64,000 bases of DNA, taken from NCBI RefSeq assembly GCF_011045215.1, contig NZ_CP049201.1. One strand, written 5' to 3'. The notes beneath the pieces are model-generated. The model did not search any database and had not been told where the DNA came from. It saw only the letters and a program-made list of their open reading frames with translations. This stretch comes from Escherichia coli. GTDB taxonomy: Bacteria; Pseudomonadota; Gammaproteobacteria; Enterobacterales; Enterobacteriaceae. The stretch's first letter is position 1; every line of letters begins with the position of its first letter. Position numbers and translations under genes: made by a program. Below, piece after piece: positions 231-62,870 of this stretch.

Positions 231-306
231 AGATAAAAAAGCCGGAATTATCATCCGGCATTTTACTGCTTAAGCGAAAGCGTGAGTGCCCCTCACGCTT
301 TATTTT
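231..306. terminator. Bidirectional rho-independent terminator region between convergent csgG and ycdZ
   Basis: Hairpin gccgga-N7-tccggc (241..259) flanked by A-run and T-run; second hairpin cgtgag/ctcacg (281..297) followed by tttattttt. Confidence 0.6.
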
Positions 307-784
307 TGATTTCCTGCTCACGGTGCGCCGTCTTTGCACTACGCGCCGCCAGCCACAGGCCGCTGTTTTTCATTGCGTAACCAAATATCAGCCCAAGCGC
401 CAGCGAAGGTAACACCAGTTTCCAGTCACCCTGCCCGGCAAACGTCGCGCATGCGCCTATAAACGTCCCCGGAACAAATGAAAGCAGCAGCTGTTTGGCC
501 TGAATACACATCAGAAACGCGACAATACCGGTTATGACATAACCGAGAATTTCCAAATGTGGCGTCAGTGCACTACCGTAAATAATGACCATCGCCCACA
601 CCACGCCACTAAGCAGGGTTGCAGCGGAGATCGCCAGCCCTTTCAGCCCACCTTGCGGGCAGGCAAAGTAGGCCGTACAGCCCAGGAAGCCCGCCCAGCT
701 TAGTAAGCCCAGGGAAACAGCCACCCATCCCCAGATACCGGAGAGAATGCCTGTTGTGATTGCAATAGAGAGAAGTATGTTCAT
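293..784 (-). CDS. ycdZ: Inner membrane protein YcdZ (DUF1097)
   Basis: 163-aa hydrophobic multi-TM product from internal ATG (MNILLSIAITTG...); position next to ycdY/ycdX matches K-12 synteny. Confidence 0.85.
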   Translation of the reverse strand: MNILLSIAITTGILSGIWGWVAVSLGLLSWAGFLGCTAYFACPQGGLKGLAISAATLLSGVVWAMVIIYGSALTPHLEILGYVITGIVAFLMCIQAKQLLLSFVPGTFIGACATFAGQGDWKLVLPSLALGLIFGYAMKNSGLWLAARSAKTAHREQEIKNKA

Positions 785-885
785 GCCGCGCATGATAGCA
801 GAAAACGCGGCCATGAATGAGATCGAGCACACATTTTATGCAACAACAAATTATCTGTTGCAGTTATGAGTGACGATGATCACAT

Positions 886-1440
886 TTACTCTTCAGAATC
901 TTCTTCCAGCTCGTCCCACATTGCACTAATGGCATCACGGGTTAGCGGTGCCATGGTGCGCCAGAAAGGCGTGGTTGCATGGGCCTCCACTTTGCCGAGG
1001 AACGCACCACACCAGGGTAACAGATACTCACTGAACAGTGTTTCCAGTGCTTCGCTCTCATCTTCCGTTGACTGATCTTCCAGCCAGGAAGCCGCAAGCA
1101 GCAATGTGCCGATGTGATCGGCTGGCGTATCCGCCAGTGGCATCCCTCGTTCGGAAAGAAAAGCGCGCACTTCCGCTTCCGTTGCGTCCTCAACCCATGC
1201 GCTACGATATGGCGGCACGGCACATTCATCGCCGATAAACAACGCATTGTAATCGGCAGAGACTTGCGCCATATCACAGCTTTTCTGTAAACGCGTCAGT
1301 AACTCATCCTGCTCCAGTGGCCAGTTCGCAGCCAGTTTCCCCTCACGAATCAGGGTAAACAGCGGCACCAGTAAAGGATCTTGCGGTTGGCGGTAATAGA
1401 GCGAACCCAGCACACGACAGAGGATAGAAAACTCGTTCAT
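886..1440 (-). CDS. ycdY: YcdY, TorD-like redox enzyme maturation chaperone (partner of YcdX)
   Basis: 184-aa ORF MNEFSILCRVLGSLYYRQPQDPLL...; immediately downstream of ycdX. Confidence 0.85.
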   Translation of the reverse strand: MNEFSILCRVLGSLYYRQPQDPLLVPLFTLIREGKLAANWPLEQDELLTRLQKSCDMAQVSADYNALFIGDECAVPPYRSAWVEDATEAEVRAFLSERGMPLADTPADHIGTLLLAASWLEDQSTEDESEALETLFSEYLLPWCGAFLGKVEAHATTPFWRTMAPLTRDAISAMWDELEEDSEE

Positions 1441-1463
1441 TAATATATTTCCATTACTAGTAA

Positions 1464-2201
1464 TTAAAGGTCTGCAAATTCCGCAATCGGTGCCATACCG
1501 CGAGATTCAAGGAAGTTCAGTAAGCGGCGCGGCGAAACATTCAAAATGCGCTCTGGCGGAAAATCTACCGCGTCGAGGATTTTAAGACACTCTTCAAATT
1601 CCCCCATGGTAAACGCGGTGTGAGAATCCGAGCCTAATGCCACCCAACCTCCAGCATCACGTACCGCTGCGGCTACCGCACGACAGTTGTCTTCACTGCC
1701 CTTACGTGAGTGTAAAAATGAAGAATTATTGATTTCCAGCGCCACCTGATGTTTCGCGGCTGCTTCAGCAACGGCTTTCACATCTATTTCATATTTGGGA
1801 TTTCCGGGATGGCTTATTATATGCACATTGCCGCTGGCGATAGTGGCGATCATCGCTTGTGTATTGGTCGCTTTGTCATGTGGTGCAAAAACCGGCTCAT
1901 GAAAACCGGCAATAATCAGATCCAGCGAGTCAAACATTTTACCGCTGCAATCAATTTCACCATCAACATTTTTAATGTTAGCTTCGATGCCGCGCAGGAT
2001 CCCTACCCCATCAACCACTCGCGGCCAGATACGCATGTTAATGAAGTGCCAGTGATGCGGAGCATCTTCCATATCCGGGCCATGATCGGTGATCGCAAAA
2101 AGTTTAATGCCCTTTTGTTTGGCCTGGGCAATGTAATCACTCAATGTGCTATATGCATGTGTGCTGGCAACGGTATGCATATGAAGGTCGACGGGATACA
2201 T
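1464..2201 (-). CDS. ycdX: YcdX, PHP-family zinc phosphatase
   Basis: 245-aa ORF with PHP-domain metal-binding histidines ([18 protein letters not shown]... ITDHGP). Confidence 0.9.
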
Positions 2202-2255
2202 AACTCTCTCCTGTATTCAATTCCCGCCAAGGATAGCAGGAATCCTGATGCTTTA

Positions 2256-3233
<978 letters not shown>

Positions 3234-3427: not shown

Positions 3428-3515
3428 GGTGAGGTGTCCGAGTGGCTGAAGGAGCACGCCTGGAAAGTGTGTATACGGCAACGTATCGGGGGTTCGAATC
3501 CCCCCCTCACCGCCA
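3428..3515 (+). tRNA. serX: tRNA-Ser (anticodon GGA), serX
   Basis: 88-nt sequence GGTGAGGTGTCCGAGTGGCTGAAGGAGCACGCCTGGAAAGTGTGTATACGGCAACGTATCGGGGGTTCGAATCCCCCCCTCACCGCCA with long variable arm and CCA end; K-12 synteny between ghrA and ycdU. Confidence 0.95.
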
Positions 3516-27651: not shown

Positions 27652-27907
27652 TTGAGCCTGTAACTGTTTTTTGTCCATAAATTAACCTTCATTTGATGCT
27701 GGATAGAACATATCAAAATCAGACAATTACACAAATCTATGTACAGGCTCAACTCCTGCCATGGAACGTAGTACTCACCAATAAGTAAGCATCAATACGG
27801 CGCTCCGTTAACGCTTACTAGCATGGTTATCTCCTTAAAAAATTGAGGCGACAACTATGCTGACACAGGGGGTTACTCACCGATCTCCTTCACGGTAATA
27901 CGCAGTT

Positions 27908-28024
27908 CTTCAGAACCCGCCTCCGATACCAGCCTGGCGGTCGCCCCGGCGCAAGCAAAATAAATCGACCATTGTCAGACTGCGATCGTTCGGATGCCCC
28001 GCCACCGACGCATCAGTATGAGTT
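27908..28024. repeat. Direct repeat copy A (~117 bp), partner at 36875..37003
   Basis: cttcagaacccgcctccgataccagcctggcg...gcaagcaaaataaatc.accattgtcagactgcgatc shared with copy B at ~88% identity by eye. Confidence 0.7.
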
Positions 28025-28258
28025 AACCGAAACGATACAAAATTGCCTGAGAATCATTACGCTGGCTGATGGAAGGCACACCAAAAGCCTCTGCACAGAA
28101 CGATGTTCGGCAACAACAGAAACATGATTGCGTTCATGGCAATAGTCATTCGTACCGTTACAGGCGGTATTGATTTATTACAGACAAGCGGTACATATAT
28201 GTACCGCTTGGTTAAGTAAAAAAACAGATATGAACGCTATTATGTTCATTCTACTTTA

Positions 28259-28816
28259 TTAAAAGCGATAACCCACGCCAATATTGAATCCATTAATGGA
28301 ATAATTATCGCCAAGTTTTGCTCTGGTTCCTTCATATCCGGCATTAATTGTAATATTACTTGTCGGATTGATCATTACCCCGGCAGCATAAGCAAAAGAT
28401 GTGGATTTTTTCGAAATATTTTCTCTGGCGAAATAACCATCAACGTTTGTCCATGCTGTTTTACCATCAGCTTTAACATGCGCCACGCCGCCAGCCGCAT
28501 ACAGTGACATATAATCGTTAATGCGCCATACGGGGCCGGTCAGTAAGGAATAATATTTTGCATCAACCTGGTTTTTAATTGAATCGCCATATGAATGATA
28601 TTCCTGATTACCATCCCCTTTCATCCAGGAGAAACTGCCCATAATACTGACCGGGGAGTCCCATTCATACCTGTACTGCAGGTTTACCCCTCTAATATTC
28701 TTGAAGTTCTGAATTTTACTCTGTGCATAACCGACAGAAAACGAATGGTTGTCAGCCAGCACGGAACCGCTTGCCACTGATAATATGATGGCTGAAAGAA
28801 CTGACAGTTTTTTCAT
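28259..28816 (-). CDS. Ail/Lom/OmpX-family outer-membrane beta-barrel protein
   Basis: Signal peptide MKKLSVLSAIILSVASGSVLA, alternating amphipathic strands, C-terminal ...NIGVGYRF aromatic terminus. Confidence 0.8.
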   Translation of the reverse strand: MKKLSVLSAIILSVASGSVLADNHSFSVGYAQSKIQNFKNIRGVNLQYRYEWDSPVSIMGSFSWMKGDGNQEYHSYGDSIKNQVDAKYYSLLTGPVWRINDYMSLYAAGGVAHVKADGKTAWTNVDGYFARENISKKSTSFAYAAGVMINPTSNITINAGYEGTRAKLGDNYSINGFNIGVGYRF

Positions 28817-29081: not shown

Positions 29082-29315
29082 TCAGAACCCCTTAACTTTC
29101 ATGATATGCAACAAACCAATACCCAAGCCTAAGATCCCCCCCCCATACACACTCATTTTTAACAGTCTAGAAAACTGAAAAACTTCAAATGATATTGGGG
29201 CATTCAAATAAAAATACATAAATATCTTCAGAAGAAGATAAAAAATCGAACCGACTATAAACAAACCAAATATGCATACAGTCATTAATAAGACAACAAT
29301 AAGAAGGTTCTTCAT
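29082..29315 (-). CDS. Orphan CdiI-like immunity protein (77 aa, two predicted TM helices)
   Basis: Small hydrophobic ORF overlapping the stop of the orphan cdiA-CT by 4 nt. Confidence 0.6.
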
Positions 29316-30343
29316 TTCCCAGCCTCCATTGCATCTTTCTTTTTCTGGATAATGGAGCTTCCAAACTCAGATGATAAACTACCACCCGCATTACCCACAG
29401 CACCAGGGATCTTACTCGGTACCATTTCTTTAGATAGACCTAACTGCCCTTTAACTTCAGTATATTTTAGTAGAGTCGGATCGAATTTAGGATTCCAGCC
29501 ACCGGTTATCCATTTACCGATTGTATTTGCAGCAGGCTTGACCACATAATTGCCAACCCCATATCCAAACCCGGCCCCCGCTCCATTTGTAATCGCCCCA
29601 GTAAGAGGATCATCTCCGTTTATGGCGTTGGTTAATGCTCCACCTGCCGCATTCCAGGCTATTGTCCCTTTCCAGCCCTGCCCCATGGTGATTACATTGA
29701 CCCATCCTGCAATGATTGCATTTTCAGGATCAACTGAACTATCTACCATGTAACCAATTCCTGCATTTGCACCTGTGCCAAGAGCCCACATGGCCTGAGC
29801 ACCGCCAGGTAAGAGAGCTACACTACCAGTGGCCAACGCTCCGGCATACGCTTTATTGACTGCTTCTCCTCGCTTACAGGCTTCACCGCCTGGGGCATCG
29901 TTACAGGAAAGTACATCTGCGCCATGCGTCTGAGCAGCTTTGCTCTGCTCGGACTCTGTGCCACCAACCAAGTTATTCTCAGCAATGTTCTTCCCAACAC
30001 CAGCCCCTGCAGCCGCGCCAGCCACATCGCCACTGGCAATGCCGCCAGCCATACCCGCTGACAGCGTTGCCAGCGTGCTTATCGTCTGCTTCTGCTCTTC
30101 ACTGAGGTCTGACTGTTTCACGCCCGGATACAGCATTCCGATCGCTCTGGCTGCCAGCTCTCCCGTTGCTGCGCCTGCTGCACCAGCAGCAACATTATTA
30201 CTCTGCATTGCCGCTACTGCACCGCCCAGAATGGCGTGAGCAATGGCCTTTACTGCCGGGTCTTTTTCTGTTGATTTCAGCAGGTATGCCAGTTCCGGAG
30301 CCGAAGCTCCCGCCAGTACTGCACCAACGTCACCACCTGCCAG
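29312..30343 (-). pseudogene. Orphan cdiA-CT fragment (pretoxin/VENN-like region plus glycine-rich C-terminal toxin domain), 5'-truncated
   Basis: Translation upstream of the annotated ATG continues as ...[53 protein letters not shown]..., homologous to the CdiA 37491..46565 pretoxin region ([13 protein letters not shown]...VENN); preceded by an in-frame stop at 30344. Confidence 0.75.
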
Positions 30344-31048
30344 CTATGGCTGGAGATGGTGGATGTTACCGATAATCAAGAAGCCTTAGATATAAGGCAA
30401 TGTTTTATCTTTCTTTCATACGAAAACCAGTGCTGCCATACTAGCCCTTTTCCTGTGACATCTAAGCGAGCTCATGTTTATCGGGAAGGGTGTTAGATCA
30501 TTGTTAATCATACACAGGTAATTATGCAGCGGTTATGCATAACTTCATTTCGAGCGTGTGATAACGCCAACACAATCACCAGAATTATAAAATAAAATCA
30601 CAAAACCTGAGAACATGTCACATTTTATCACATTAATAATTTTTCTTTATGATTTCATAACTATTTACAGCCTTTTATTAAGCCAAAAAAAGTTAAATTG
30701 CAATTATTGCATAATTATTCGCGCTACAGTTTTTTTACTTTTAAAATCATATAATATATAATCACCTTAAAACAGCAAACTCCACAAAATAATAACAAAT
30801 AGAAATATTTCCACCCAAATAATGATTATCTATTCATGAGCTGACATTATGAAATTAATCATTATTTGATGCAAATAACACAAATTAAAACAAACACCTT
30901 AATATCCATTCTTGTGTGAATCTCATCACAATAATGTTTATTTTACCGCCTAGTATGAACCACGAAATCAATTGAACTTAGCCGCCATGAAATTAAATAC
31001 ACAACATGGCGCATACCTTTTTATTCTGAAAAAATTAAAGGAATAATT

Positions 31049-32269
31049 ATGGAAAAGCATTACGTCGGTTCTGAAATTGGTCAATTGCGTAGTGTTATGC
31101 TGCACCGCCCAAATTTAAGTCTGAAACGTTTGACACCATCGAATTGTCAGGAACTGCTTTTCGATGATGTACTCTCGGTTGAACGGGCAGGTGAAGAGCA
31201 TGACATCTTCGCAAATACGCTGCGCGATCAGGGGGTGGAAGTCCTGCTGTTAACAGACCTCCTGACACAAACCCTTGATATTAAAGAAGCGAAAACCTGG
31301 CTACTGGAGACGCAAATTTCTGACTACCGCCTCGGACCTACCTTTGCGGGCGATGTGCGCAGCTGGCTGGCGGACATGCCGCACCGTGAACTGGCGCGAA
31401 GATTAAGCGGCGGATTAACTTACGGTGAAATTCCGGCTGCCATTAACAATATGGTGGTGGATACCCACACGTCTAATGACTTTATTATGAAGCCGCTACC
31501 GAATCATTTATTTACCCGCGATACCTCCTGCTGGATTTATAACGGTGTTTCTATTAACCCGATGGCCAAACCAGCCCGTCAACGTGAAACCAATAACCTC
31601 CGGGCAATATATCGCTGGCACCCGGCATTTGCCGACGGCGATTTTATTAAGTATTTCGGCGACGAAAATATTTATTACGACCACGCCACTTTGGAAGGTG
31701 GCGACGTATTAGTGATTGGTCGTGGGGCGGTATTGATCGGCATGTCTGAACGCACAACACCGCAGGGCGTGGAGTTCCTCGCCAACAGCCTGTTCAAACA
31801 TCGTCAGGCCGAGCGAGTGATCGCCGTTGAGCTGCCAAAACACCGCTCCTGTATGCACCTTGACACCGTCATGACCCACATCGACGTTGACACTTTCTCC
31901 GTTTACCCGGAAGTGGTGCGCAAAGACGCCCAGTGCTGGACGCTCACTTCGAACGGACGCGATGGCCTACAACGGACCCAGGAAACCGACCTGTTGCACG
32001 CCATCGAGAAAGCACTCGGTATTGACCAGGTACGCTTGATCACCACCGGCGGCGACGCCTTTGAAGCCGAACGTGAGCAGTGGAACGACGCCAATAACGT
32101 TCTGACCATCCGCCCCGGTGTGGTGATTGGTTACGAGCGCAACGTCTGGACTAACGAGAAATACGACAAAGCCGGCATCACCGTGCTGCCCATCCCGGGG
32201 GACGAATTGGGACGAGGCCGCGGCGGCGCACGCTGCATGAGCTGTCCGCTTGAACGCGACGGAATTTAA
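31049..32269 (+). CDS. arcA: Arginine deiminase
   Basis: 406-aa [31 protein letters not shown]... typical ADI N-terminus; RBS aaaggaataattATG. Confidence 0.9.
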
Positions 32270-32279
32270 AGGAGCCATC

Positions 32280-33191
32280 ATGGAACGAAAACCCACTTTG
32301 GTTGTGGCGTTGGGCGGCAACGCATTATTGAAGCGCGGCGAACCACTGGAAGCAGAAATCCAGCGCCAGAACATTGAGTTGGCCGCCCGTACCATCGCCG
32401 GGCTCACGGTGAATTGGCGCGTGGTGTTGGTTCACGGCAACGGTCCACAGATCGGGCTGCTGGCGCTGCAGAACAGCGCCTACGACAAAGTAACCCCTTA
32501 TCCACTGGACGTTCTTGGCGCCGAAAGCCAGGGGATGATCGGCTACATGCTCCAGCAGGCGCTGAAAAACAGCCTGCCACAGCGTGAGGTGAGCGTCCTG
32601 CTTACTCAGGTGGAAGTGGACGCTACTGACCCGGCGTTCAGCAACCCGACCAAATATATCGGACCGGTGTACAACGAAGACCTGGCAAAAACACTGGCAG
32701 CAGAAAAAGGTTGGGGGTTTAAGGCCGACGGCAGCTACTTCCGTCGCGTGGTGCCATCTCCACAGCCGAAACGCATTGTCGAGAGCGATGCTATTACGGC
32801 ACTGATCCAGCGCGACCATCTTGTTATCTGCAACGGCGGCGGTGGTGTGCCAGTTGTGGAAAAGGCTAACGGCTATCGCGGAATTGAGGCGGTGATCGAC
32901 AAAGACCTCTCTGCTGCCCTGCTGGCATACCAGATAGGGGCCGACGCACTACTGATTCTCACTGATGCCGACGCGGTTTACCTCGATTGGGGCAAACCGA
33001 CCCAGCGTCCGCTAGCGCAGGTGACGCCAGAACTGCTCAGAGGCATGCAGTTTGACACCGGATCGATGGGGCCGAAAGTGGCCGCCTGCTGCAAGTTTGT
33101 TGAAGCTTGCAACGGTATTGCCGGGATCGGCGCTCTGGTCGACGGGGCTGAGATTTTGGCGGGCAAGAAAGGCACATTGATTCGTAACTGA
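32280..33191 (+). CDS. arcC: Carbamate kinase
   Basis: MERKPTLVVALGGNALLKRGE... carbamate kinase N-terminal motif; six-frame ORF extends 10 codons upstream. Confidence 0.9.
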   Translation: MERKPTLVVALGGNALLKRGEPLEAEIQRQNIELAARTIAGLTVNWRVVLVHGNGPQIGLLALQNSAYDKVTPYPLDVLGAESQGMIGYMLQQALKNSLPQREVSVLLTQVEVDATDPAFSNPTKYIGPVYNEDLAKTLAAEKGWGFKADGSYFRRVVPSPQPKRIVESDAITALIQRDHLVICNGGGGVPVVEKANGYRGIEAVIDKDLSAALLAYQIGADALLILTDADAVYLDWGKPTQRPLAQVTPELLRGMQFDTGSMGPKVAACCKFVEACNGIAGIGALVDGAEILAGKKGTLIRN

Positions 33192-33275
33192 ATCCCCCTT
33201 CACCTAACCCTCTCCTCAAAGGGGAGATGGCAGAGTGAGGGCATCAGACAGTTAAAATTTAAAAAGGATTTCCTA

Positions 33276-34280
33276 ATGACCATCAATTTGAAAAAACGCA
33301 ACTTCCTTAAACTGCTGGACTACACCCCGGCAGAGATCCAGTACCTGATCGATCTCGCGATCAAACTGAAAGCGGCCAAAAAAGCCGGACGAGAAAAACA
33401 GACCTTGGTTGGCAAAAACATTGCCCTGATTTTTGAAAAAACCTCCACCCGTACCCGCTGTGCTTTCGAAGTGGCTGCGTTCGACCAGGGGGCGCAGGTG
33501 ACCTACCTCGGCCCAGGCGGATCGCAAATCGGCCATAAAGAGTCAATGAAAGACACCGCCCGTGTGCTGGGCCGTATGTATGACGGCATCGAATACCGTG
33601 GTTACGGTCAGGCCATCGTTGAGGAGTTGGGCAAATACGCGGGCGTACCGGTGTGGAACGGTCTGACCGACGAATTTCACCCAACCCAAATCCTCGCAGA
33701 TTTGATGACCATGCTGGAACATTCCCCGGGCAAAAAACTGTCGGAACTGAGCTTTGCCTACCTTGGCGACGCACGCAACAACATGGGTAACTCCCTGATG
33801 GTGGGGGCTGCCAAAATGGGGATGGATATCCGTCTTGTAGCCCCAAAATCCTTCTGGCCGGATGTGGTGCTTGTTGAACAGTGCCGTTCCATCGCGGAAG
33901 AGACGGGCGCACGTATCACCCTGACCGATGACGTGGAAGAAGGCGTGTGGGGAACGGATTTCCTCTACACCGATGTTTGGGTCTCCATGGGTGAACCGAA
34001 AGAGGCGTGGACCGAACGCGTCAGCCTGATGAAGCCTTATCAAATCAACGCTGACGTGATGAACGCCACCGGCAACCCGAACGTCAAGTTCATGCACTGC
34101 CTGCCAGCCTTCCACAATGAGCACACCAAAGTGGGCCGAGAAATTGAGATGGCATACGGCCTGAAGGGACTGGAGGTGACGGAAGAGGTCTTCGAATCCC
34201 CTAACTCTATCGTCTTTGATGAAGCAGAAAACCGCATGCATACCATTAAAGCGGTCATGGTGGCGACACTCGGCGACTAA
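33276..34280 (+). CDS. arcB: Ornithine carbamoyltransferase (catabolic)
   Basis: STRTR carbamoyl-phosphate binding motif and HCLP motif. Confidence 0.9.
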
Positions 34281-34327
34281 TCACCACCCGGTGCGTCGTA
34301 GGGTGCACCGGGTCTCAGGAGAACATC

Positions 34328-35731
34328 ATGGGTAAGTTCAAATTTCCCTCCGCATATACCATTCTCTTTTTTCTGATTGCCATCGTTGCCGTCCTGACGT
34401 GGATCATTCCAGCCGGGCAGTATCACATGGCAATGAACGAAGCTCTCGGCAAGGAGGTTCCTGTTGCCGGCACCTATGCACACGTAGAGGCCAATCCGCA
34501 GGGACTGATTTCAGTGCTGATGGCCCCAATTGCCGGGTTGTATGATCCAGACTCCGGTCAGGCTAGGGCGATAGACGTTGCGCTGTTTATTCTGATCATC
34601 GGAGGATTCCTCGGGATCGTCACCAAAACCGGGGCCATTGACGCCGGAATCGAGCGCGTCACCACCCGACTACGTGGTCGCGAAGAGTGGATGATCCCGA
34701 TCCTTATGGCGCTGTTTGCTGCTGGCGGTACAATTTACGGCATGGCCGAAGAATCCCTGCCGTTTTATACCCTGCTGGTGCCGGTGATGTTGGCAGCACG
34801 CTTCGACCCTGTGGTAGCCGCCTCCACCGTGCTGCTCGGCGCCGGGATCGGCACGCTCGGTTCCACCATTAACCCTTTCGCGACGGTGATCGCCGCCAAT
34901 GCAGCCGGGATCCCCTTCACCAACGGTATCACCTTGCGTGTGGTGGTGCTTGTCATCGGCTGGATAATCTGCGTGACATGGGTGATGCGCTATGCCCGGA
35001 AAGTTCGCAAGGAGCCGTCTCTCTCCATTATTGCGGATAAACAAGAGGAGAACCTCGCCCACTTCCTCGGCAATAAAAGCGAACAGGCTCTGGAGTTCAC
35101 CCCGGTACGCAAAATTATTCTGGTGATTTTCGCCCTTACCTTCGCGGTCATGATCTACGGCGTGGCGGTGCTGGGTTGGTGGATGGCGGAGATCTCAACG
35201 GTATTTCTGGCCAGCGCAATTATCATCGGCCTGATCGCCCGCATGAGCGAAGAGGAACTGACCTCTACCTTTATCAACGGCGCGCGAGATTTGCTGGGCG
35301 TTGCACTGATTATCGGTATCGCGCGCGGTATCGTAGTGATCATGGATAAAGGTATGATTACCCATACTATTTTGCACTACGCCGAGGGAATGGTTACTGG
35401 ATTATCGACAGTAGCATTCATCAACGTGATGTATTGGCTGGAAGTGGTGCTGTCGTTTCTTGTGCCTTCTTCGTCCGGTCTGGCCGTTCTGACGATGCCG
35501 ATCATGGCACCTCTTGCCGACTTCGCTAACGTCAACCGCGACCTGGTAGTTACGGCTTACCAGTCTGCGTCCGGTATCGTTAACCTGATCACTCCCACCT
35601 CTGCCGTTGTGATGGGCGGACTGGCTATCGCCCACGTGCCTTACGTGCGATATCTGAAATGGGTTGCGCCGCTGCTTGGGATATTAACAGTGGTAATTAT
35701 GGTGGCATTAAGTCTGGGGGCATTGTTGTAA
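34328..35731 (+). CDS. YfcC-family membrane transporter (putative arginine/ornithine antiporter of the ADI operon)
   Basis: 467-aa polytopic membrane protein, co-directional and immediately downstream of arcB. Confidence 0.7.
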   Translation: MGKFKFPSAYTILFFLIAIVAVLTWIIPAGQYHMAMNEALGKEVPVAGTYAHVEANPQGLISVLMAPIAGLYDPDSGQARAIDVALFILIIGGFLGIVTKTGAIDAGIERVTTRLRGREEWMIPILMALFAAGGTIYGMAEESLPFYTLLVPVMLAARFDPVVAASTVLLGAGIGTLGSTINPFATVIAANAAGIPFTNGITLRVVVLVIGWIICVTWVMRYARKVRKEPSLSIIADKQEENLAHFLGNKSEQALEFTPVRKIILVIFALTFAVMIYGVAVLGWWMAEISTVFLASAIIIGLIARMSEEELTSTFINGARDLLGVALIIGIARGIVVIMDKGMITHTILHYAEGMVTGLSTVAFINVMYWLEVVLSFLVPSSSGLAVLTMPIMAPLADFANVNRDLVVTAYQSASGIVNLITPTSAVVMGGLAIAHVPYVRYLKWVAPLLGILTVVIMVALSLGALL

Positions 35732-35811
35732 TTTGCCGGATGGCGCTGCCCCTATCCGGTCTACGGAATGGTGTGGTGTCACCGGTTATTTCGAGAACTG
35801 AATATAGGATT

Positions 35812-36291
35812 ATGATGGATTACGAAGATTTCTCTCCCAAAGAGCAACTACAGCTAACGGTCTGCCAACGTCTGATTGCAGAAAAGAGCTATTTTTCCCA
35901 AGAGGAGCTCCGCCGCGACTTACAGGAGCGTGGTTTTGAGACAATCAGCCAGTCCACCGTTTCTCGTCTGCTCAAGTTGTTAGGTGTCATAAAAATTCGA
36001 AATGCCAAAGGGCTAAAAGTCTATTCGCAGAATCCACAGTTGCGTCCGGCTCCTGATGCCGCGCGCACTGTGTCCGAAATGGTGGTGAGCGTTGAGCACA
36101 ATAGAGAATTTATCCTTATCCATACCGTTGCTGGATATGGCCGCGCAGTGGCACGTGTCCTTGATTATCACCAGTTGCCAGAAATTTTAGGCGTGGTGGC
36201 CGGAAGCAGTATCGTCTGGGTCGCTCCTCGGATGGTGAAGCGTGTCGCTCTGGTGCATAAGCAAATTAATTATTTACTAAGAACGTATTAA
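35812..36291 (+). CDS. argR: ArgR-family arginine-responsive repressor
   Basis: 159 aa from MMDYEDFSPKEQLQLTVCQRLIAEKSYFSQEELRRDLQERGFETISQSTVSRLLK... winged-helix N-terminus plus C-terminal oligomerisation domain. Confidence 0.8.
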   Translation: MMDYEDFSPKEQLQLTVCQRLIAEKSYFSQEELRRDLQERGFETISQSTVSRLLKLLGVIKIRNAKGLKVYSQNPQLRPAPDAARTVSEMVVSVEHNREFILIHTVAGYGRAVARVLDYHQLPEILGVVAGSSIVWVAPRMVKRVALVHKQINYLLRTY

Positions 36292-36538
36292 TATTCACAA
36301 ATGCCCGCTTGTATTGACTAATACATACATTAAATCGCTTCATTCGCAAAGCGAGTTTCCTATAATGCCTGATAATGTGCCAGGAGGGAGCATAGTCAAG
36401 CGTGTACGATATAACGTCTCACCGCGTCTGAAATCAGACACTGGCTTGGTGTTTTATTCCCGTTGCTTAATCTATTCCTTGGGTCCCTCATTTGAGGGGC
36501 TTTTTTTGCTCGGCATCAGGAGATAAACATGAATCCGT

Positions 36539-36688
36539 TTTATCAAAAAATAAATGCCCCTAGCCGCGAAGTGCTGGAGCTCGTTCTAAAAATCGCAGCA
36601 AAAATTGAAAACCATTCCTCAACCATCGCGGCGTTCGTATGCGCCGCCAATGATGCGCCCGAAAACGCGTCAATATGAGTTCGCCGGA
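36539..36688 (+). CDS. Small ORF (49 aa, MNPFYQKINAPSREVLELVLKIAAKIENHSS...) with strong RBS; speculative
   Basis: aggagataaacATG; its 3' end is the sequence that is repeated at 36946..37016 and 27975..28024. Confidence 0.25.
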
Positions 36689-36874
36689 ATATTACTCTGC
36701 TGTCGGGAGTTGAACGCCTGACGACAGGAAATGAGCCAGGCCAGCCACCACGCGGGCTGACAGCGAATCAGAACCTGAGTCAGCCCGGAGCCATTCCCGG
36801 GGCTGCACTTCATCACCTGCCACCAGTACCCGTGTCAGTACTTCGCGACCTGACGCAATTATCCGACTCAGTCC

Positions 36875-37003
36875 TTCAGAACCCGCCTCCGATACCAGCC
36901 TGGCGCTCGCCCCTGCGCAAGCAAAATAAATCAACCATTGTCAGACTGCGATCATTCGTATGCACCGCCGATGACGCGCCCGAAAACGCGTCAATATGAG
37001 TTC
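36875..37003. repeat. Direct repeat copy B, partner at 27908..28024; embedded in a block of sub-repeats (36655..37040)
   Basis: Same sequence as copy A; cgcccgaaaacgcgtcaatatgagttcgccggaatattac occurs at 36655 and 36975, with tatgagttcgccggaatattac again at 37021. Confidence 0.7.
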
Positions 37004-37064
37004 GCCGGAATATTACTCAATATGAGTTCGCCGGAATATTACGCCTAGCTGGGGGTTTTCTGTG

Positions 37065-37095
37065 CACAAAAAAATCCCGGCATAATGGCCGGGAT
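37065..37095 (-). terminator. Rho-independent terminator after cdiI (end of cdiBCAI operon)
   Basis: Hairpin atcccggc-ataatg-gccgggat preceded on plus strand by A-run (T-run on the transcribed minus strand). Confidence 0.6.
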
Positions 37096-37110
37096 TTGCG
37101 AGCTTTCCCA

Positions 37111-37485
37111 CTATTTCTTGATTCCTAAACGGAACATATCAGTTGGGAATAAAGGTTGTATTATCACTTCATCATTAAAAATGAATAATTTGGGCGATAA
37201 AGCTGTTACGTCATAGATATTTTCAGCGATTAATCTTAGATTTGACCTAAAAACTGGAATACTTGCATCATCTACAAAGACAAACATGTCATCGTTTTTT
37301 ACAGAGTTTGCACACAATAGCTCATCAAAACTCTCATAATCAGAATGCCAGATCTCTGACCAAGTAACACTTCCTTTCGCGAGAGGGTACTTATTTAAAA
37401 TGCCCAGAGCCTCCTGCTGAGCCAGCCCCTCTACTATATTAAAATCAGCACTCAGTGCTTCCCGACACTCATCAAATAAAGTCAT
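37111..37485 (-). CDS. cdiI: CdiI immunity protein cognate to the CdiA C-terminal toxin
   Basis: 124-aa ORF starting 6 nt after the cdiA stop; AT-rich relative to cdiA. Confidence 0.7.
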   Translation of the reverse strand: MTLFDECREALSADFNIVEGLAQQEALGILNKYPLAKGSVTWSEIWHSDYESFDELLCANSVKNDDMFVFVDDASIPVFRSNLRLIAENIYDVTALSPKLFIFNDEVIIQPLFPTDMFRLGIKK

Positions 37486-37490
37486 TTGCT

Positions 37491-40400
37491 CTACCTGTTT
37501 AGCTGTTTCAATATTGTTTCAAAAGACTTTTCATTGCCTTCAAAAGGTATGACTTGCTTCACCGCTTTTCCAGGGCCTTTACCCTGCGAGTAATCCCATA
37601 TATTGATGTGTGTGCCTTTTTCAGGATCATAATCAACACGCCAACCAACTTTTCCGTCGCTGGATTGCCGCCCTATGACTTTCCCATTACCAGCGCTGAC
37701 TTCCAAACGTCCGATAACTGGCTTAGAGTCCGCTCCTAAATTACCTACAAGATCCAATGCCTTGTTTCGAGCAGTTTCCCAGTTTTTCTCTGGCTTGAGG
37801 ATTTGTTCAATTTTAGGCTGGGAATTCCCTTTAACCTTACTAATTCCCCCAAATGCTGACGCCGCAGCGCTCGCGACTATTCCCGCCTGAACTTCATCCA
37901 AACCGTATTCTTCTTGGAGTGCTTCCGAGACTTTGTTGGTCGCGACAACCCCTTCAGCCTGCATTTGCTGCGCAAAAGTCGCCGTCAGATCGTAGACCAT
38001 TTTGATCGGGATATCTTCACCCAGAGCACGATCTATTGCCTGCTTCACCGCCAGACTGTCAGTCAGTACATCACCGTATTTCTGCTGGCAGGTTGCCGGG
38101 CTGGCTGCACAGTCACTGATCAGTTGCTTTTGCTGTGCCGTACTCAACTCTTCGTACTTTTTGATAATACCGCCGCAGTCACCGCCTTTCGCCTGACAGG
38201 ACTTCATTTCAGCGGACCAAGCATCTATCTGCTTACTGCTCAGATAGTTATTCTCAACAGTTGTCTTACCTGACTGTGCGCCGGCTACCGCTGAAGCCCC
38301 CGAGTCTCCCACCAGACCACCGGCCAGGCCGGCAGCAACCGTTGCCAGTGTCGAGACCGTCTGCTTCTCTGTCTCGCTCAGTTCACTCACCGGCTTACCG
38401 TACATCTGTGTGGCTATCATTCCCACCACCTCGCCGGTGGCTGCACCTGCAGCACCGGCAAGGGCATTCTTACCCTGTGCCAGAGACAGGGCGGCATTCA
38501 CTACTGCATGAGCTGCCACACGCCCCGCACCGTCCGGGGTGGTCTGTTTGATAATTTCAGCAATATACGGCGCTGCACCACCTGCCAGGGCTGCACTCAG
38601 ATTACCGCCGGCCAGTCCCTGTACCGCTGCCGTTGCGGCCTGTATCGCCTGCTGGTATTTGCCTCCCGTTCCAAAACCGGAGGCTGCCATACCGTTATTG
38701 TAGGCCCGCTGTGCCACATCCTGTTCCGTGTACGGTTTTCCTGCTGCCTCAAGCTCTGCGCGGGCCTGATTCAGTGCTGCCGGGTCCCGCTTCGCTTTCT
38801 CACCGGCTATCTGTCCTTCCGTTCTGGCAATATCTGCCACCTGGTTACCAATCTCACCAATGAGTTGCGCCTGCTGCAACCGCTGCTGCTCTTTTTCCCT
38901 GTCAAAGATGGGGGACAGCGTCTGGTTTGCATGCGCAACGTCACGGTTCAGGTCTGCCACATCCTGTTTCTGGCTCTGTGTATCCCGGATAGTGATATTC
39001 CCGGCAGACACAGCCGACTGCGTGGTACTGTCCGCATGGCCTTCATGATTTGCACCGACCAGCAGATTGTTTGCCATGTTCCCCAGGAAATTTCCGGCAA
39101 CACTGCCACCGGTACTGAGCCCTGCACTCTGATGTTCCGTTTTAAAGTCAGCCCGGTTTTCAGTGTCACTGAAGCCCAGTGTGCCGGTATCCAGCCTGTT
39201 TTTATCTGCCGTTGCCGTGGACGCAATCACCGCACCGTTCAGTTGCGTATGCTGTCCGGTGGTGACATCAAACCCGCCCCTGCCGGCAAAAATCCCCGTC
39301 TGCTCCTGTACACTGTCGTAGTTACTGTGCATTTTATCCCGGCTGAGGTTCACACTCGCCGAACCGCTCATGGACCCGAAAGTGAAGCTGCCTCCGGCGC
39401 TGGCATTCTGCTGCTTACTGTCATAACGGTCACTGTCCTGCTCACTGGTCAGTGTCAGATGACGACCGGCATCCACTTTCACCGTTTCACCGCCAGCCTG
39501 CGCGCCGGTAAGCGTGGTGTCCCGCCCGCTGATAATGGTCAGCCGGTTTCCCGCATCCACCGTGGTTTCTGTATGGGTGGTACCGTTGCCTTTTTCACTG
39601 CCCTTACCCTGGTTTGCGCTGGCTGACAGACTGAAACCAGGCCCTCCGGGCCCCACACCGATACCGACACCCACGCTGCCACCACTGGATGTGTTCTTTC
39701 CTTCCAGCTTTGACGTGTTTTCTGCTGATACCAGATTCACGTCACGGTTTGCCTGCAGCAGAACGTTGTTCCCGGCCTTTATCTGACCGCCCTGTATCGT
39801 CAGGTCACCATCCACGCCCTTCACGCCGGAGCCGGTGGCCTGAATACTGAGGTTATTACCTGCGGTCAGTGTACTGCCCTTCGCCACCGTCTGCTCTGAC
39901 TGCTGTTCTGATTTCGAAGACTGGCTGCCGTAAGAGAGGCTGATACCCACGGTATTGTTATTCTCTTTCTGGTTGCCCTGTGCTTCTGCCAGTCGTCCGG
40001 CCTGCACGGCCTGAGCCCCCGAGAGCGCGGCCTTCACCCCCTGCAGGGCTTCAAGCCGGCTGTTTCCGGCAGATTTCGCCGCCTGTACGGTCTCCACCGT
40101 CGTGTTCAGGGCGCTGCCCGCTGTGCCGGACAGGGCAAGCGTCAGACCGGAGGTTTTCTGCTCCACCGTATGTGTCTGCACATGCCGGTCAGTGGCGGCG
40201 GTAATGCTGACCTCCTTACCACTGAGTGCCATGTCCCTGCCGGCAATCAGGTCAGAGCCGTTGACGGTCAACCGGTTACCTGCCTGAAGGGAAACATCAC
40301 CGTGAACACTCCCCACCGTGCTGCCTTTCTGCGTGGTGTCTGTTGCGGTGTCCGTGACCTTCAGACTCTGGCTGCCCACGCTGAATCCCACACCTCCGGA

Positions 40401-55240: not shown

Positions 55241-56692
55241 TCAGAGGTCAAAGTTAGGTGCGACACACAACGTTTTTCCCTCAATAACCGGTACAACTCT
55301 GTTTTGTTCATACAGTAAATCCAGTAACCAGTTGATTTTATCCTTTTTCCGGAAACGGTTCGGGCCACGCTGTAAAATGTCATTTTTTTTCATACAGAGG
55401 ATCCCCTTCTCAATGCAATAGCTTTTTATCCAGTTGAAAAGTTCAAGCTCCTCTGGAATGAGTCGCACAGGTACGGTCAGGGCGGAGTTGTCAAAAGTTA
55501 ACGGATTAGACAACCGCACATACTCATTACCGTACCATATTGCTAATTCTCTCGCCATTTCTGCAGTGTAAGGGGAAATCTCCCCCTCTTCACCGCTCGA
55601 ATGGTAAATAAGTCCTGCCAGTCTTGCCATATACTCTGCATTTTTAGCAGCATATTCCCGGCAATGTCTTAAAGGCCCCAATCCCCCCAGCTTCGATTCC
55701 ACATCATTGTAATAATCCGTCCAGATTCTGGCAGCCTGAGGAGAAAAGTGAAGGCAACGTCGTTCACCACTCATCGCCAGACTTTCATCAATAAGCTCAT
55801 TGATCCTCTCTTCAAACAAATCCTGATACTGTGATGAATAATTATCTCCGGTTATTATCCTTGTCCCCTGCGTTGATGTTGGTTGACACATCAAAAACCT
55901 TGCATGATGTCCTGACGTTTTCACAAGTTCTTTTTTTCGCGTACAAAAACCTTTGTGGTAAACATCAGGCTGAATCATCACCGATATCGTCAGTCTTGGC
56001 TCCTTCAAATTAATTCCGGGAGATGATTTCCTGTCGATGAAAAGAGAACCTCCATCCCACAAAGTGTTAATAATTCCCAGTTTACTCATGGCCCGGCTGT
56101 CAAAAATTACCCCCCCTTCACTGGATACAAGAGCAAAAGAGCGATTGCTATCAGAGTAATATTTTAACATTCCCTCTATCGTTGTCTCATTAAAAATTGT
56201 TCGACGTATCTGCGGCGGAACAGGAGATTTATTCAGATGCGTTTCAAGCTCTGATTCTGTTGCCTTGTAATCTTTACCGGCACGAATCTCTTTATGAAAT
56301 TTTGATTCCAGCGCTTTTTGTTTTTGCTCCCATATTTCCTTTTCTGTACTGTAATTCTCAACCAGTTTCGCGTATTCTTCCGCCAGGGCTTCATCCCTGA
56401 GATAAAATGCTTTCATAAACACTTTATCCACGGTCGTTTTCCTTTCACCGGAATCAGCCAGAATCAGAGAGTAAAGATTAACAGGCCCATGTAAATTTCC
56501 AGGTCTGCACACGTCAATCTGATTCTGACAGGCAATTGAGATCGCTGTTAATGCGGATGTTGCCACCATAGCCAAAGGTGCCTGTGTATTTTTTTGAGTT
56601 TCAATTATTGCATTTCTCACCAGCGGTGGTAGTGCATATATCGGATAAGGATTTTCTGGTGCAAGTAAGCACATAAAAGCCTCTCTTTTCAT
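55241..56692 (-). CDS. DUF3987-family protein (YfjI-like), usual partner of AlpA in P4-type islands
   Basis: 483-aa ORF downstream of alpA; start codon uncertain. Confidence 0.65.
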   Translation of the reverse strand: MKREAFMCLLAPENPYPIYALPPLVRNAIIETQKNTQAPLAMVATSALTAISIACQNQIDVCRPGNLHGPVNLYSLILADSGERKTTVDKVFMKAFYLRDEALAEEYAKLVENYSTEKEIWEQKQKALESKFHKEIRAGKDYKATESELETHLNKSPVPPQIRRTIFNETTIEGMLKYYSDSNRSFALVSSEGGVIFDSRAMSKLGIINTLWDGGSLFIDRKSSPGINLKEPRLTISVMIQPDVYHKGFCTRKKELVKTSGHHARFLMCQPTSTQGTRIITGDNYSSQYQDLFEERINELIDESLAMSGERRCLHFSPQAARIWTDYYNDVESKLGGLGPLRHCREYAAKNAEYMARLAGLIYHSSGEEGEISPYTAEMARELAIWYGNEYVRLSNPLTFDNSALTVPVRLIPEELELFNWIKSYCIEKGILCMKKNDILQRGPNRFRKKDKINWLLDLLYEQNRVVPVIEGKTLCVAPNFDL

Positions 56693-56892: not shown

Positions 56893-57090
56893 CTAATACC
56901 TTTCCCCCGGTCTTTTCCCTTTCTCCAGAACCATAGTGTAAATATTAACGGCCCCACGTAAATTTCCGGGGCTGCATACGTCAACCTGATTCTGACAGGC
57001 AATTGACATCGCTGTTAATACTGACATTGCAACCAGAGTCAGAGGTACTTGTTTATTGTATTGAGCTTTAATTATTGCCTTCCCTATCAT
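56893..57090 (-). pseudogene. Duplicated 5' fragment of the DUF3987 gene
   Basis: 65-aa ORF ...LTLVAMSVLTAMSIACQNQVDVCSPGNLRGAVNIY... paralogous to residues ~35-80 of the 55241..56692 product. Confidence 0.6.
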
Positions 57091-57316
57091 TGATGGTCAC
57101 GTATATACTGAATACGGCATATCCGGTTTGATGTAAGACATAAATGCTTCCTTTTTCGTAATACGTTTCGGTTATAGCAGCAATTACCGCTACAATAGCG
57201 ACAATAGCTGCTCTTTCAACAATGAATGCTGGAAATTCTGTTTATCAATTAAACTTCTGGCTAAATTGTTCTTATGCTTCTTTTTCCTCCTGAGGTGATC
57301 ACGTGATGACAAAAAC

Positions 57317-62107: not shown

Positions 62108-62149
62108 TATTTAAATAAATATCCTCCGGCATAGCCGGAGGTTTTTCAA

Positions 62150-62870
62150 ATGCGCCTATAAGGCTCTCTTACCAGCCGCGCCCTAACAGGCGCACACGAT
62201 CTGACATTTGCATCCAACTTCGTTACTTACGGCCCGTAAACGGGCTGCCCGGATAGGGAATCGATAACTGCTCTCCCATTTCATCCTCTTCAAGCTGGTG
62301 CTTTATGTAATCCTGTATCTTCGCCGTGTTCTTACCCACCGTATCGACGTAGTACCCTCTGCACCAGAACTCCCTGTTCCTGTATTTGAATTTCAAATCC
62401 CCAAACTGCTCATAAAGCATCAGACTGCTTTTCCCTTTCAGATATCCCATAAAGCCGGATACGCTCATTTTGGGCGGGATCTCCACAAGCATATGGATAT
62501 GATCTGCACAGCATTCAGCTTCAAGAATCCGTACGCTTTTCCACTCACACAGCTTTCTCAAAATACTGCCTATTGCTCTACGCTTCTCTCTGTAGAACAC
62601 TTGTCTTCGGTATTTTGGCGCAAAAACTATGTGATATTTACAGTTCCATCGGGTGTGCGCTAAGCTCTTTTCGTTCCCCATTGGGACCCCCTTTTGATTT
62701 CTTGTTTGACACTTGCAGTTGCCAGACCGCAAGGTGTTTTAACAAATCAAAAGGGGTTTTAATAACTGGCTCAAAGCTGAAAGCTTTCCGGAACCCCCAG
62801 CCTAGCTGGGGGTTTTCTGTGCACAAGAAGAGCCCGTACGAAAGTACGGGCTTTTTTTTCGTATATTGCA
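62150..62870 (-). mobile_element. IS200-family insertion sequence (approximate ends)
   Basis: Contains a Y1 HUH transposase gene and a hairpin agcccgtac-gaaa-gtacgggct followed by T-run at 62831..62861; ends estimated from typical ~0.7 kb size. Confidence 0.7.
62223..62681 (-). CDS. tnpA: IS200 transposase TnpA (HUH Y1 family)
   Basis: MGNEKSLAHTRWNCKYHIVFAPKYRRQ...ADHIHMLVEIPP... near-identical to recalled IS200 TnpA. Confidence 0.9.
   Translation of the reverse strand: MGNEKSLAHTRWNCKYHIVFAPKYRRQVFYREKRRAIGSILRKLCEWKSVRILEAECCADHIHMLVEIPPKMSVSGFMGYLKGKSSLMLYEQFGDLKFKYRNREFWCRGYYVDTVGKNTAKIQDYIKHQLEEDEMGEQLSIPYPGSPFTGRK

Follow-up and report, generated by a model that had tools for sequence, protein, structure and literature searches.

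In this study, we analysed the block at positions 36292–37110 of a 64,000-nt stretch of the Escherichia coli contig NZ_CP049201.1 (the window, meaning that whole stretch). The block is bounded on the left by an argR-like gene and on the right, in the opposite orientation, by the immunity gene cdiI, and no intact gene is present between the two (Table 1). Of 5426 complete genomes, only two have this exact arrangement, each at the same locus. An Rfam scan of 35700–37600 at a permissive E-value gave only two terminator-like matches (E 0.6–0.9, far under the gathering scores), and Pfam and NCBIfam searches with the 49-aa ORF of the block and with an 80-aa minus-strand ORF gave none. The fold of 36373–36512, a 140-nt putative leader RNA, was no better than that of shuffled sequences (z −0.73). 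The Rfam scan, the ORF family searches and the leader fold thus revealed no sign of a new gene or RNA in the block.

Table 1. Features of the block between argR and cdiI and of its two flanking genes (positions in the window)
Feature	Position	Strand	Evidence or remark
argR-like regulator gene at the end of the acquired arginine deiminase (arc) cluster	35812–36291	+	Pfam Arg_repressor, Arg_repressor_C; 92% amino acid identity to Enterobacter cloacae
Relic of the pyrBI promoter region	36292–36391	+	Alignments with K-12 and seven other species
Relic of the pyrL leader ORF, 44 codons and stop	36392–36526	+	PF08052 PyrBI_leader, 29.7 bits against a cut-off of 25
pyrBI attenuator homologue, hairpin and T7	36481–36507	+	−13.6 kcal/mol; homologous to GCCCCTCA..GAGGGGC-T8/9 elsewhere
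Truncated pyrB 5′ end (pyrB′), about 32 codons	36529–36624	+	BLASTP, alignment; Shine–Dalgarno CAGGAGATAAACATG conserved
49-aa ORF, chimera of frameshifted pyrB′ and IS66 right end	36529–36678	+	No Pfam or NCBIfam match
9 nt ATCGCGGCG at the putative pyrB′/IS deletion junction	36625–36633		Homology to pyrB up to 36624 and to the IS from 36634
Stump 1, last 62 nt of the IS66-family element including the right inverted repeat	36634–36695	+	Terminus ...GGAATATTAC at 36695
Stump 2, last ~320 nt (IS ~2452–2772, downstream of tnpC)	36696–37016	+	Terminus at 37016; 89.6% (blastn) to L003 5998–6535
Stump 3, right tip of the IS (26 nt) perfectly repeated in tandem	37017–37042	+	Its end coincides with an IS terminus
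Terminal 27 nt of IS200C (one half of its end hairpin)	37043–37069	+	Identical to window 62800–62826
Intrinsic terminator of the cdiI/cdiBAI operon	37064–37097	−	Stem 37097–37072, then T-run; −17.4 kcal/mol, z −3.5
cdiI immunity gene	37111–37485	−	PF24172 CdiI_ImmP, E 5.9e-34

Alignment shows that the left part of the block, 36292–36624, is a relic of a pyrBI control region, comprising the promoter, the pyrL leader, the attenuator hairpin with its T7 tract and about 32 codons of pyrB. Positions 36361–36549 align with K-12 pyrL/pyrB at 75%, with the −10 element, leader, attenuator, T-run, and pyrB Shine–Dalgarno sequence and start codon conserved, and the first ~27 residues of the 49-aa ORF are 53% identical to the N-terminus of K-12 PyrB (BLASTP). 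Records with an identical sequence carry the RefSeq annotation ‘pyrBI operon leader peptide’. The hairpin and T-run that the original prediction had noted are real (stem 36481–36502, T7 36501–36507), but they are homologous to the pyrBI attenuator and do not form a generic terminator. No strong intrinsic terminator precedes this one 3′ of argR, and it lies 21 nt before the ATG of pyrB′. The leader/attenuator region is homologous to that of E. coli K-12 and other Enterobacteriaceae (75–80% nucleotide identity), whereas, in comparison with a K-12-type pyrBI locus, the window copy is a second, foreign one that is cut after about 32 pyrB codons and has no pyrB or pyrI to regulate: the pyrB homology, already interrupted by a deletion and a frameshift, stops at 36624, and no intact pyrB–pyrI follows downstream.

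The relic appears to be decaying without selection. The −10 element TATAAT is present at 36361–36366 and the pyrL Shine–Dalgarno sequence GGAGG at 36383–36387; the −35 element is degenerate (TTCATT versus TTGATC in Enterobacter), and the relic promoter was not called by a promoter scan because of this degeneracy. In E. coli pyrBI, the initially transcribed region AATTTG is the site of UTP-dependent reiterative transcription. The corresponding site at 36374–36379 reads AATGTG in the window versus AATTTG in all 45 other loci and in K-12. The pyrL start codon at 36392–36394 has changed from ATG to ATA; the search pattern located the start in 41 sequences used for comparison (K-12 and 40 other loci), and all 41 have ATG there. 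Upstream, an ATG is present only within the −10 box, and the region thus lacks a translatable leader; the 53-aa ORF that RefSeq annotates as the leader starts at this ATG. The leader scores 24.8 bits against an NCBIfam equivalog cut-off of 61. In the attenuator, one G–C pair is weakened to G–U and the tract is T7 instead of the T8 or T9 of other species, and pyrB′ has lost 12 nt (HIIS) and gained a single nucleotide, which shifts the frame after about codon 25. The AATGTG and ATA changes, the weaker −35 element, the G–U pair, the T7 tract, the 12-nt deletion and the +1 insertion all occur in the window alone when it is compared with the 45 species loci and K-12. Against decay count the leader ORF, which still passes the Pfam threshold, and the Shine–Dalgarno sequence and ATG of pyrB, which are intact.

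These preserved parts could instead be taken to mean that the leader and attenuator form a functional, co-opted pyrimidine-sensing riboregulator or a small-RNA gene (~135 nt, 36373–36507). The intact TATAAT, the stable terminator with its T7 tail and a leader above the Pfam cut-off would agree with such a role, as would the 99.7–100% identity of the relic among the chromosomal copies listed (51 chromosomes carry at least 80% of it). However, the damage falls on the UTP-sensing parts (start codon, TTT tract, −35 element and T-run), which do not vary in 45 other species, and downstream there are only IS stumps and a convergent gene, which offer no target for regulation. The Rfam scan found no family and the fold is unremarkable, the high identity of the E. 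coli copies reflects recent spread and not constraint, and the relic is wholly absent from plasmid-borne arc operons. We consider a retained regulatory function very improbable and prefer to regard the region as a remnant that is losing its function.

The neighbourhood of the relic points to its origin. When one genome per species was searched with the upstream ArgR-like protein, 46 loci were found in Enterobacter, Lelliottia, Kosakonia, Citrobacter, Salmonella, Trabulsiella and others, and in 45 of them sequence homologous to the window from 36292 onward directly follows argR (in the E. cloacae locus L005, which has an intact pyrB of 310 aa and pyrI, it begins 4 nt after the match). The gene order arcA–arcC–argF–yfcC–argR followed by pyrL–pyrB is the same in Enterobacter, Lelliottia, Kosakonia, Citrobacter and Salmonella; in S. 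Typhimurium, the corresponding arc cluster is STM4467–STM4463, next to pyrLBI. By blastn, window 30848–36624 forms a single colinear match to E. cloacae that ends at 36624, with 86% nucleotide identity over 5.8 kb, and the one-genome-per-species search found no donor with an identity above 86%. The E. coli form differs from the donor-type locus in being an accessory module within a genomic island from which pyrB has been cut off. The colinearity of the arc cluster with the argR–pyrL–pyrB order of the donor indicates that the cluster was acquired together with the neighbouring pyrL and the start of pyrB. The relic is carried by 51 complete E. coli chromosomes. The plasmid copies of arc have homology to the window that stops 33–36 nt after the argR stop codon, and they are without the pyrL relic. 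Such arc and argR copies, at 99% identity, were seen on about 296 mostly conjugative plasmids of E. coli and Klebsiella (e.g. NZ_CP023903.1, 89521–90036). We found nothing specific in the literature on pyrL together with arc islands. The island may have integrated at tRNA-Ser(GGA) (3428–3515), the only tRNA gene of the window.

What recurs in the right part of the block is the right end of an IS66-family element of 2772 bp (GTAATGTTCC...GGAATATTAC), at least 80% of which is present in 201 genomes. In NZ_CP148409 (locus L003), the equivalent of 36696–37016 lies directly after intact IS66-family tnpA, tnpB and tnpC genes. Three independent intact copies (L051–L053) have perfect 8-bp target duplications (tatctgcg, ggaagaag and ataaatgc) that flank exactly GTAATG.../...ATATTAC and so fix the boundaries of the element. 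Target duplications of 8 bp are attributed to IS66 by Machida (1984), as cited in PMC6778807. Aligned by script, the terminal inverted repeats GTAATGTTCCGGGGAACTCATCTTCAC and the reverse complement of the right end GTAATATTCCGGCGAACTCATATTGAC match at 23 of 27 positions; an automated inverted-repeat search did not report them because their exact seeds are shorter than 7 nt. Intact relatives in the IS66 family share GTAA...TTAC termini, imperfect inverted repeats of ~25 bp, 8-bp duplications and three ORFs, whereas the window retains nothing but pieces of the right end (62, ~320 and 26 nt) and has neither transposase genes nor a left end. Since tnpA, tnpB and tnpC are absent and only sequence downstream of tnpC is present, the block holds remnants of the element and not the element itself.

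In intact copies of the element, a hypothetical protein of 47 aa (WP_000877738.1) is annotated by RefSeq immediately past tnpC on the opposite strand (IS ~2426–2569, equal to L003 5975–6118, minus), and a version of it with its C-terminal end replaced lies at window 36670–36816 (minus). A right-end remnant of a different IS66-family member, 90% identical to 36866–36977 and with the tip ...CAGTATGAGTTAACCGAAACGATAC, was seen at 27895–28037, flanked by a type I restriction-modification region and by an Ail/Lom-like outer-membrane gene (28259–28816, minus).

The repetition is reproducible on alignment, 36634–36697 and 36955–37018 being 95% identical over 64 nt. The two copies claimed in the original prediction correspond to an exact 40-mer, cgcccgaaaacgcgtcaatatgagttcgccggaatattac, whose starts are at 36656 and 36977 and not at 36655 and 36975, and the third, partial copy placed at 37021 proved to be the perfect 26-nt tandem copy. 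A 21-nt pattern of the IS end has three matches in the window, all in the same orientation, against 0.04 expected, and none of 100 shuffled sequences reached three. The pyrB′/IS junction, where pyrB′ appears to have been joined by a deletion to an internal position of the element, is common to all carriers examined, and the sequence beyond the first terminus varies by strain; across the 51 chromosomes this is best accounted for by a single ancestral junction with variable downstream sequence.

The 49-codon ORF with its Shine–Dalgarno sequence (GGAG at 36519–36522, 6 nt before the ATG) does exist, although it had been placed 10 nt too far downstream, at 36539–36688. It had been proposed that this ORF is a small gene whose 3′ end was partly duplicated several times, since the recurring unit corresponds to that end. 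The overlap with the 64-nt unit is genuine, and a second ORF (36832–36999, 55 aa) also terminates in ...DAPENASI, but the causality is reversed: the ORF runs into the IS end, which supplies its final 14 codons and stop codon. The unit is the end of an IS of 2772 bp that generates 8-bp target duplications, and several hundred genomes (712 records) carry it at the right end of this IS. The N-terminus of the ORF is a frameshifted PyrB N-terminus, and neither it nor any other part matched a protein family. Homologues of the ORF are exclusively E. coli hypothetical proteins of 30–81 aa with a common N-terminus and different C-termini, and the C-termini of the related ORFs in other strains are unrelated to one another and set by the sequence after the IS end. 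A search with the 49-aa peptide, word-based and thus apt to miss donors of ~55% identity, found only truncated E. coli hypothetical proteins and no full-length PyrB with the same N-terminus. The duplicated-gene idea can be given practically no credence. A common pyrB′/IS junction followed by variable sequence after the first terminus shows that the ORF is a chimera of pyrB′ and the IS end rather than a gene with a duplicated 3′ end.

Several IS ends lying close together might also suggest a non-autonomous, MITE-like, mobile derivative of IS66, and a doubled-tip variant of the full element has in fact transposed by its outer tip. This variant is in locus L057 (NZ_CP148409, 1979024–1985102; ~281–3079 of the locus), where a 28-nt doubled tip has an 8-bp duplication, TAAGGAAT, at its outer tip, from which it follows that the doubled-tip copy has moved. 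Another doubled-tip copy, L003, was noted 25 kb from L057 in the same genome. In the window, however, the three termini are all right ends in direct orientation, and the exact arrangement is confined to one locus in 2 of the 5426 genomes. We rejected the MITE hypothesis, which we hold to be extremely unlikely, on the absence of a left end. As for the 26-nt copy at 37017–37042, a perfect head-to-tail duplication is what replication slippage, unconnected with transposition, could produce. Yet tip duplications of 18, 23 and 28 nt occur elsewhere (L002, L056 and L003/L057, respectively), and all of them, together with the 26-nt copy of the window, end exactly at the IS terminus in four contexts. 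That four independent duplications in different genomes stop at the terminus argues against slippage, which has no reason to respect this boundary, and makes it an improbable origin. The window tails of ~320 and 26 nt, the other tip duplications ending at the terminus and the transposed doubled tip led us to consider that the right inverted repeat of the element may be a preferred site for its own insertion or re-initiation, an uncharacterised transposition property that we put forward only tentatively and think rather unlikely. Such duplications are rare, and any preference for self-insertion would be a minor pathway: with a doubled-tip query, 4 of the 712 records with this IS end reached 80% coverage, a test that misses the 18-nt case.

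On the cdiI side, the ‘direct-repeat copy B’ of the original prediction is borne out: 37043–37097 corresponds to 62800–62854, the first 27 nt being identical. These are the terminal 27 nt of IS200C, an element of the IS200/IS605 family, whose Y1 transposase gene and other end are missing here. The intact IS200C of the window lies at ~62113–62829, with tnpA on the minus strand and with boundaries set by comparison of occupied and empty sites in other genomes. A terminator-like hairpin (~62830–62860) adjoins it, in the same way as the cdiI terminator adjoins the truncated copy. When the ancestral junction was rebuilt from the last 200 nt of IS200C and window 37070–37200, it was found at full length in 30 genomes (99.1–99.7% among those listed), always beside this cdiI; in these genomes, in contrast to the window, IS200C is intact at the same position next to the same terminator. 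The junction therefore indicates that IS200C was there first and that the IS66 end truncated it.

The unit of cdiI (PF24172), terminator and IS200C is also known from other strains, where it is a terminal or orphan module of CDI (cdiBAI) loci; here, unlike in orphan cdiA-CT/cdiI modules, it is the active terminal module of a full cdiA of 3024 aa. An 8.2-kb segment, 30042–38259, which spans the arc cluster, the scar block, cdiI and the C-terminal end of cdiA, is shared at 99.85% with strain mip270_05, and no other part of the window is common to both; this strain was dropped as a reference for the whole window, only that segment being shared. The right boundary of the segment in mip270_05 falls inside cdiA, ~770 nt from its 3′ end, which fits a swapping of cdiA-CT/cdiI between cdiA backbones (3024 aa here, 3289 aa in mip270_05). 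Just upstream of arcA, at 29312–30208 (minus), there is an orphan CdiA C-terminal-like fragment with a 298-aa ORF, and related strains have at the same position a ‘DNA/RNA non-specific endonuclease’ CT, VENN-motif pseudogenes and IS66 debris. Elsewhere in the window, a 233-nt direct repeat (56458–56690 and 56925–57157; 75% identity, 467-nt spacing) with an adjoining 74-nt pair resembles two diverged tandem small genes.

From the end points of the fragments, we infer the following order and mechanism of events. The arc cluster would have come from an Enterobacter-like enterobacterium in which it stood directly upstream of pyrL–pyrB–pyrI, and the transferred piece would have brought along the donor's pyrBI promoter, leader, attenuator and first ~32 pyrB codons. 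A deletion would then have fused pyrB′ to the interior of the IS66-family element, 62 nt from its right end. Subsequently, a copy of the IS may have inserted in the same orientation into the resident copy, followed by homologous collapse or deletion, which would leave a complete or partial IS and then the tail of the resident copy. Finally, the outermost IS66 end would have cut into the IS200C that had inserted earlier beside the cdiI terminator, leaving 27 nt of it.

Taken together, we regard the block as a non-functional mosaic produced by horizontal transfer and insertion-sequence activity (probability about 0.9). It joins an acquired arc–argR–pyrL–pyrB′ segment to a cdiI/cdiA-CT module through remnants of an IS66-family element and of IS200C. 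Of the two readings that the original prediction had offered for the repeats, a recombination scar where modules were joined is thus the correct one, and the repeated part-duplication of a small gene is not, the repeat being the right terminal inverted repeat of the IS. All the features named in the original prediction are present, some at slightly shifted coordinates. Every piece matches a known element, and the block is ordinary genome scarring, neither a new gene nor a regulatory repeat. The kinds of element in it are already known, and the recurrent duplication of an IS right tip at its terminus is a by-product of mild interest.

Two residual roles can be considered. Judged from their sequence, the two convergent intrinsic terminators probably still work; the relic attenuator would stop transcripts of arc/argR and the minus-strand hairpin those of cdiBAI, insulating both operons. 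The homologous IS ends would act as substrates for more rearrangement. A case in point is strain SCU-176, in which an IS66 relative stands in place of cdiI and most of cdiA.

In summary, the significance of the block goes little beyond annotation hygiene: the RefSeq calls ‘pyrBI operon leader peptide’ and ‘hypothetical protein’ here correspond to the relic and the chimeric ORF and are better classed as remnants of pseudogenes. A junction prone to rearrangement, beside a CDI toxin/immunity module, is marked by the IS stumps. The pyrBI relic is a useful fossil, indicating that the accessory arc operon of E. coli came from a chromosome of an Enterobacter-like lineage in which arc abutted pyrLBI, and that chromosomal islands have kept a form nearer to the original than that of the widespread plasmids.
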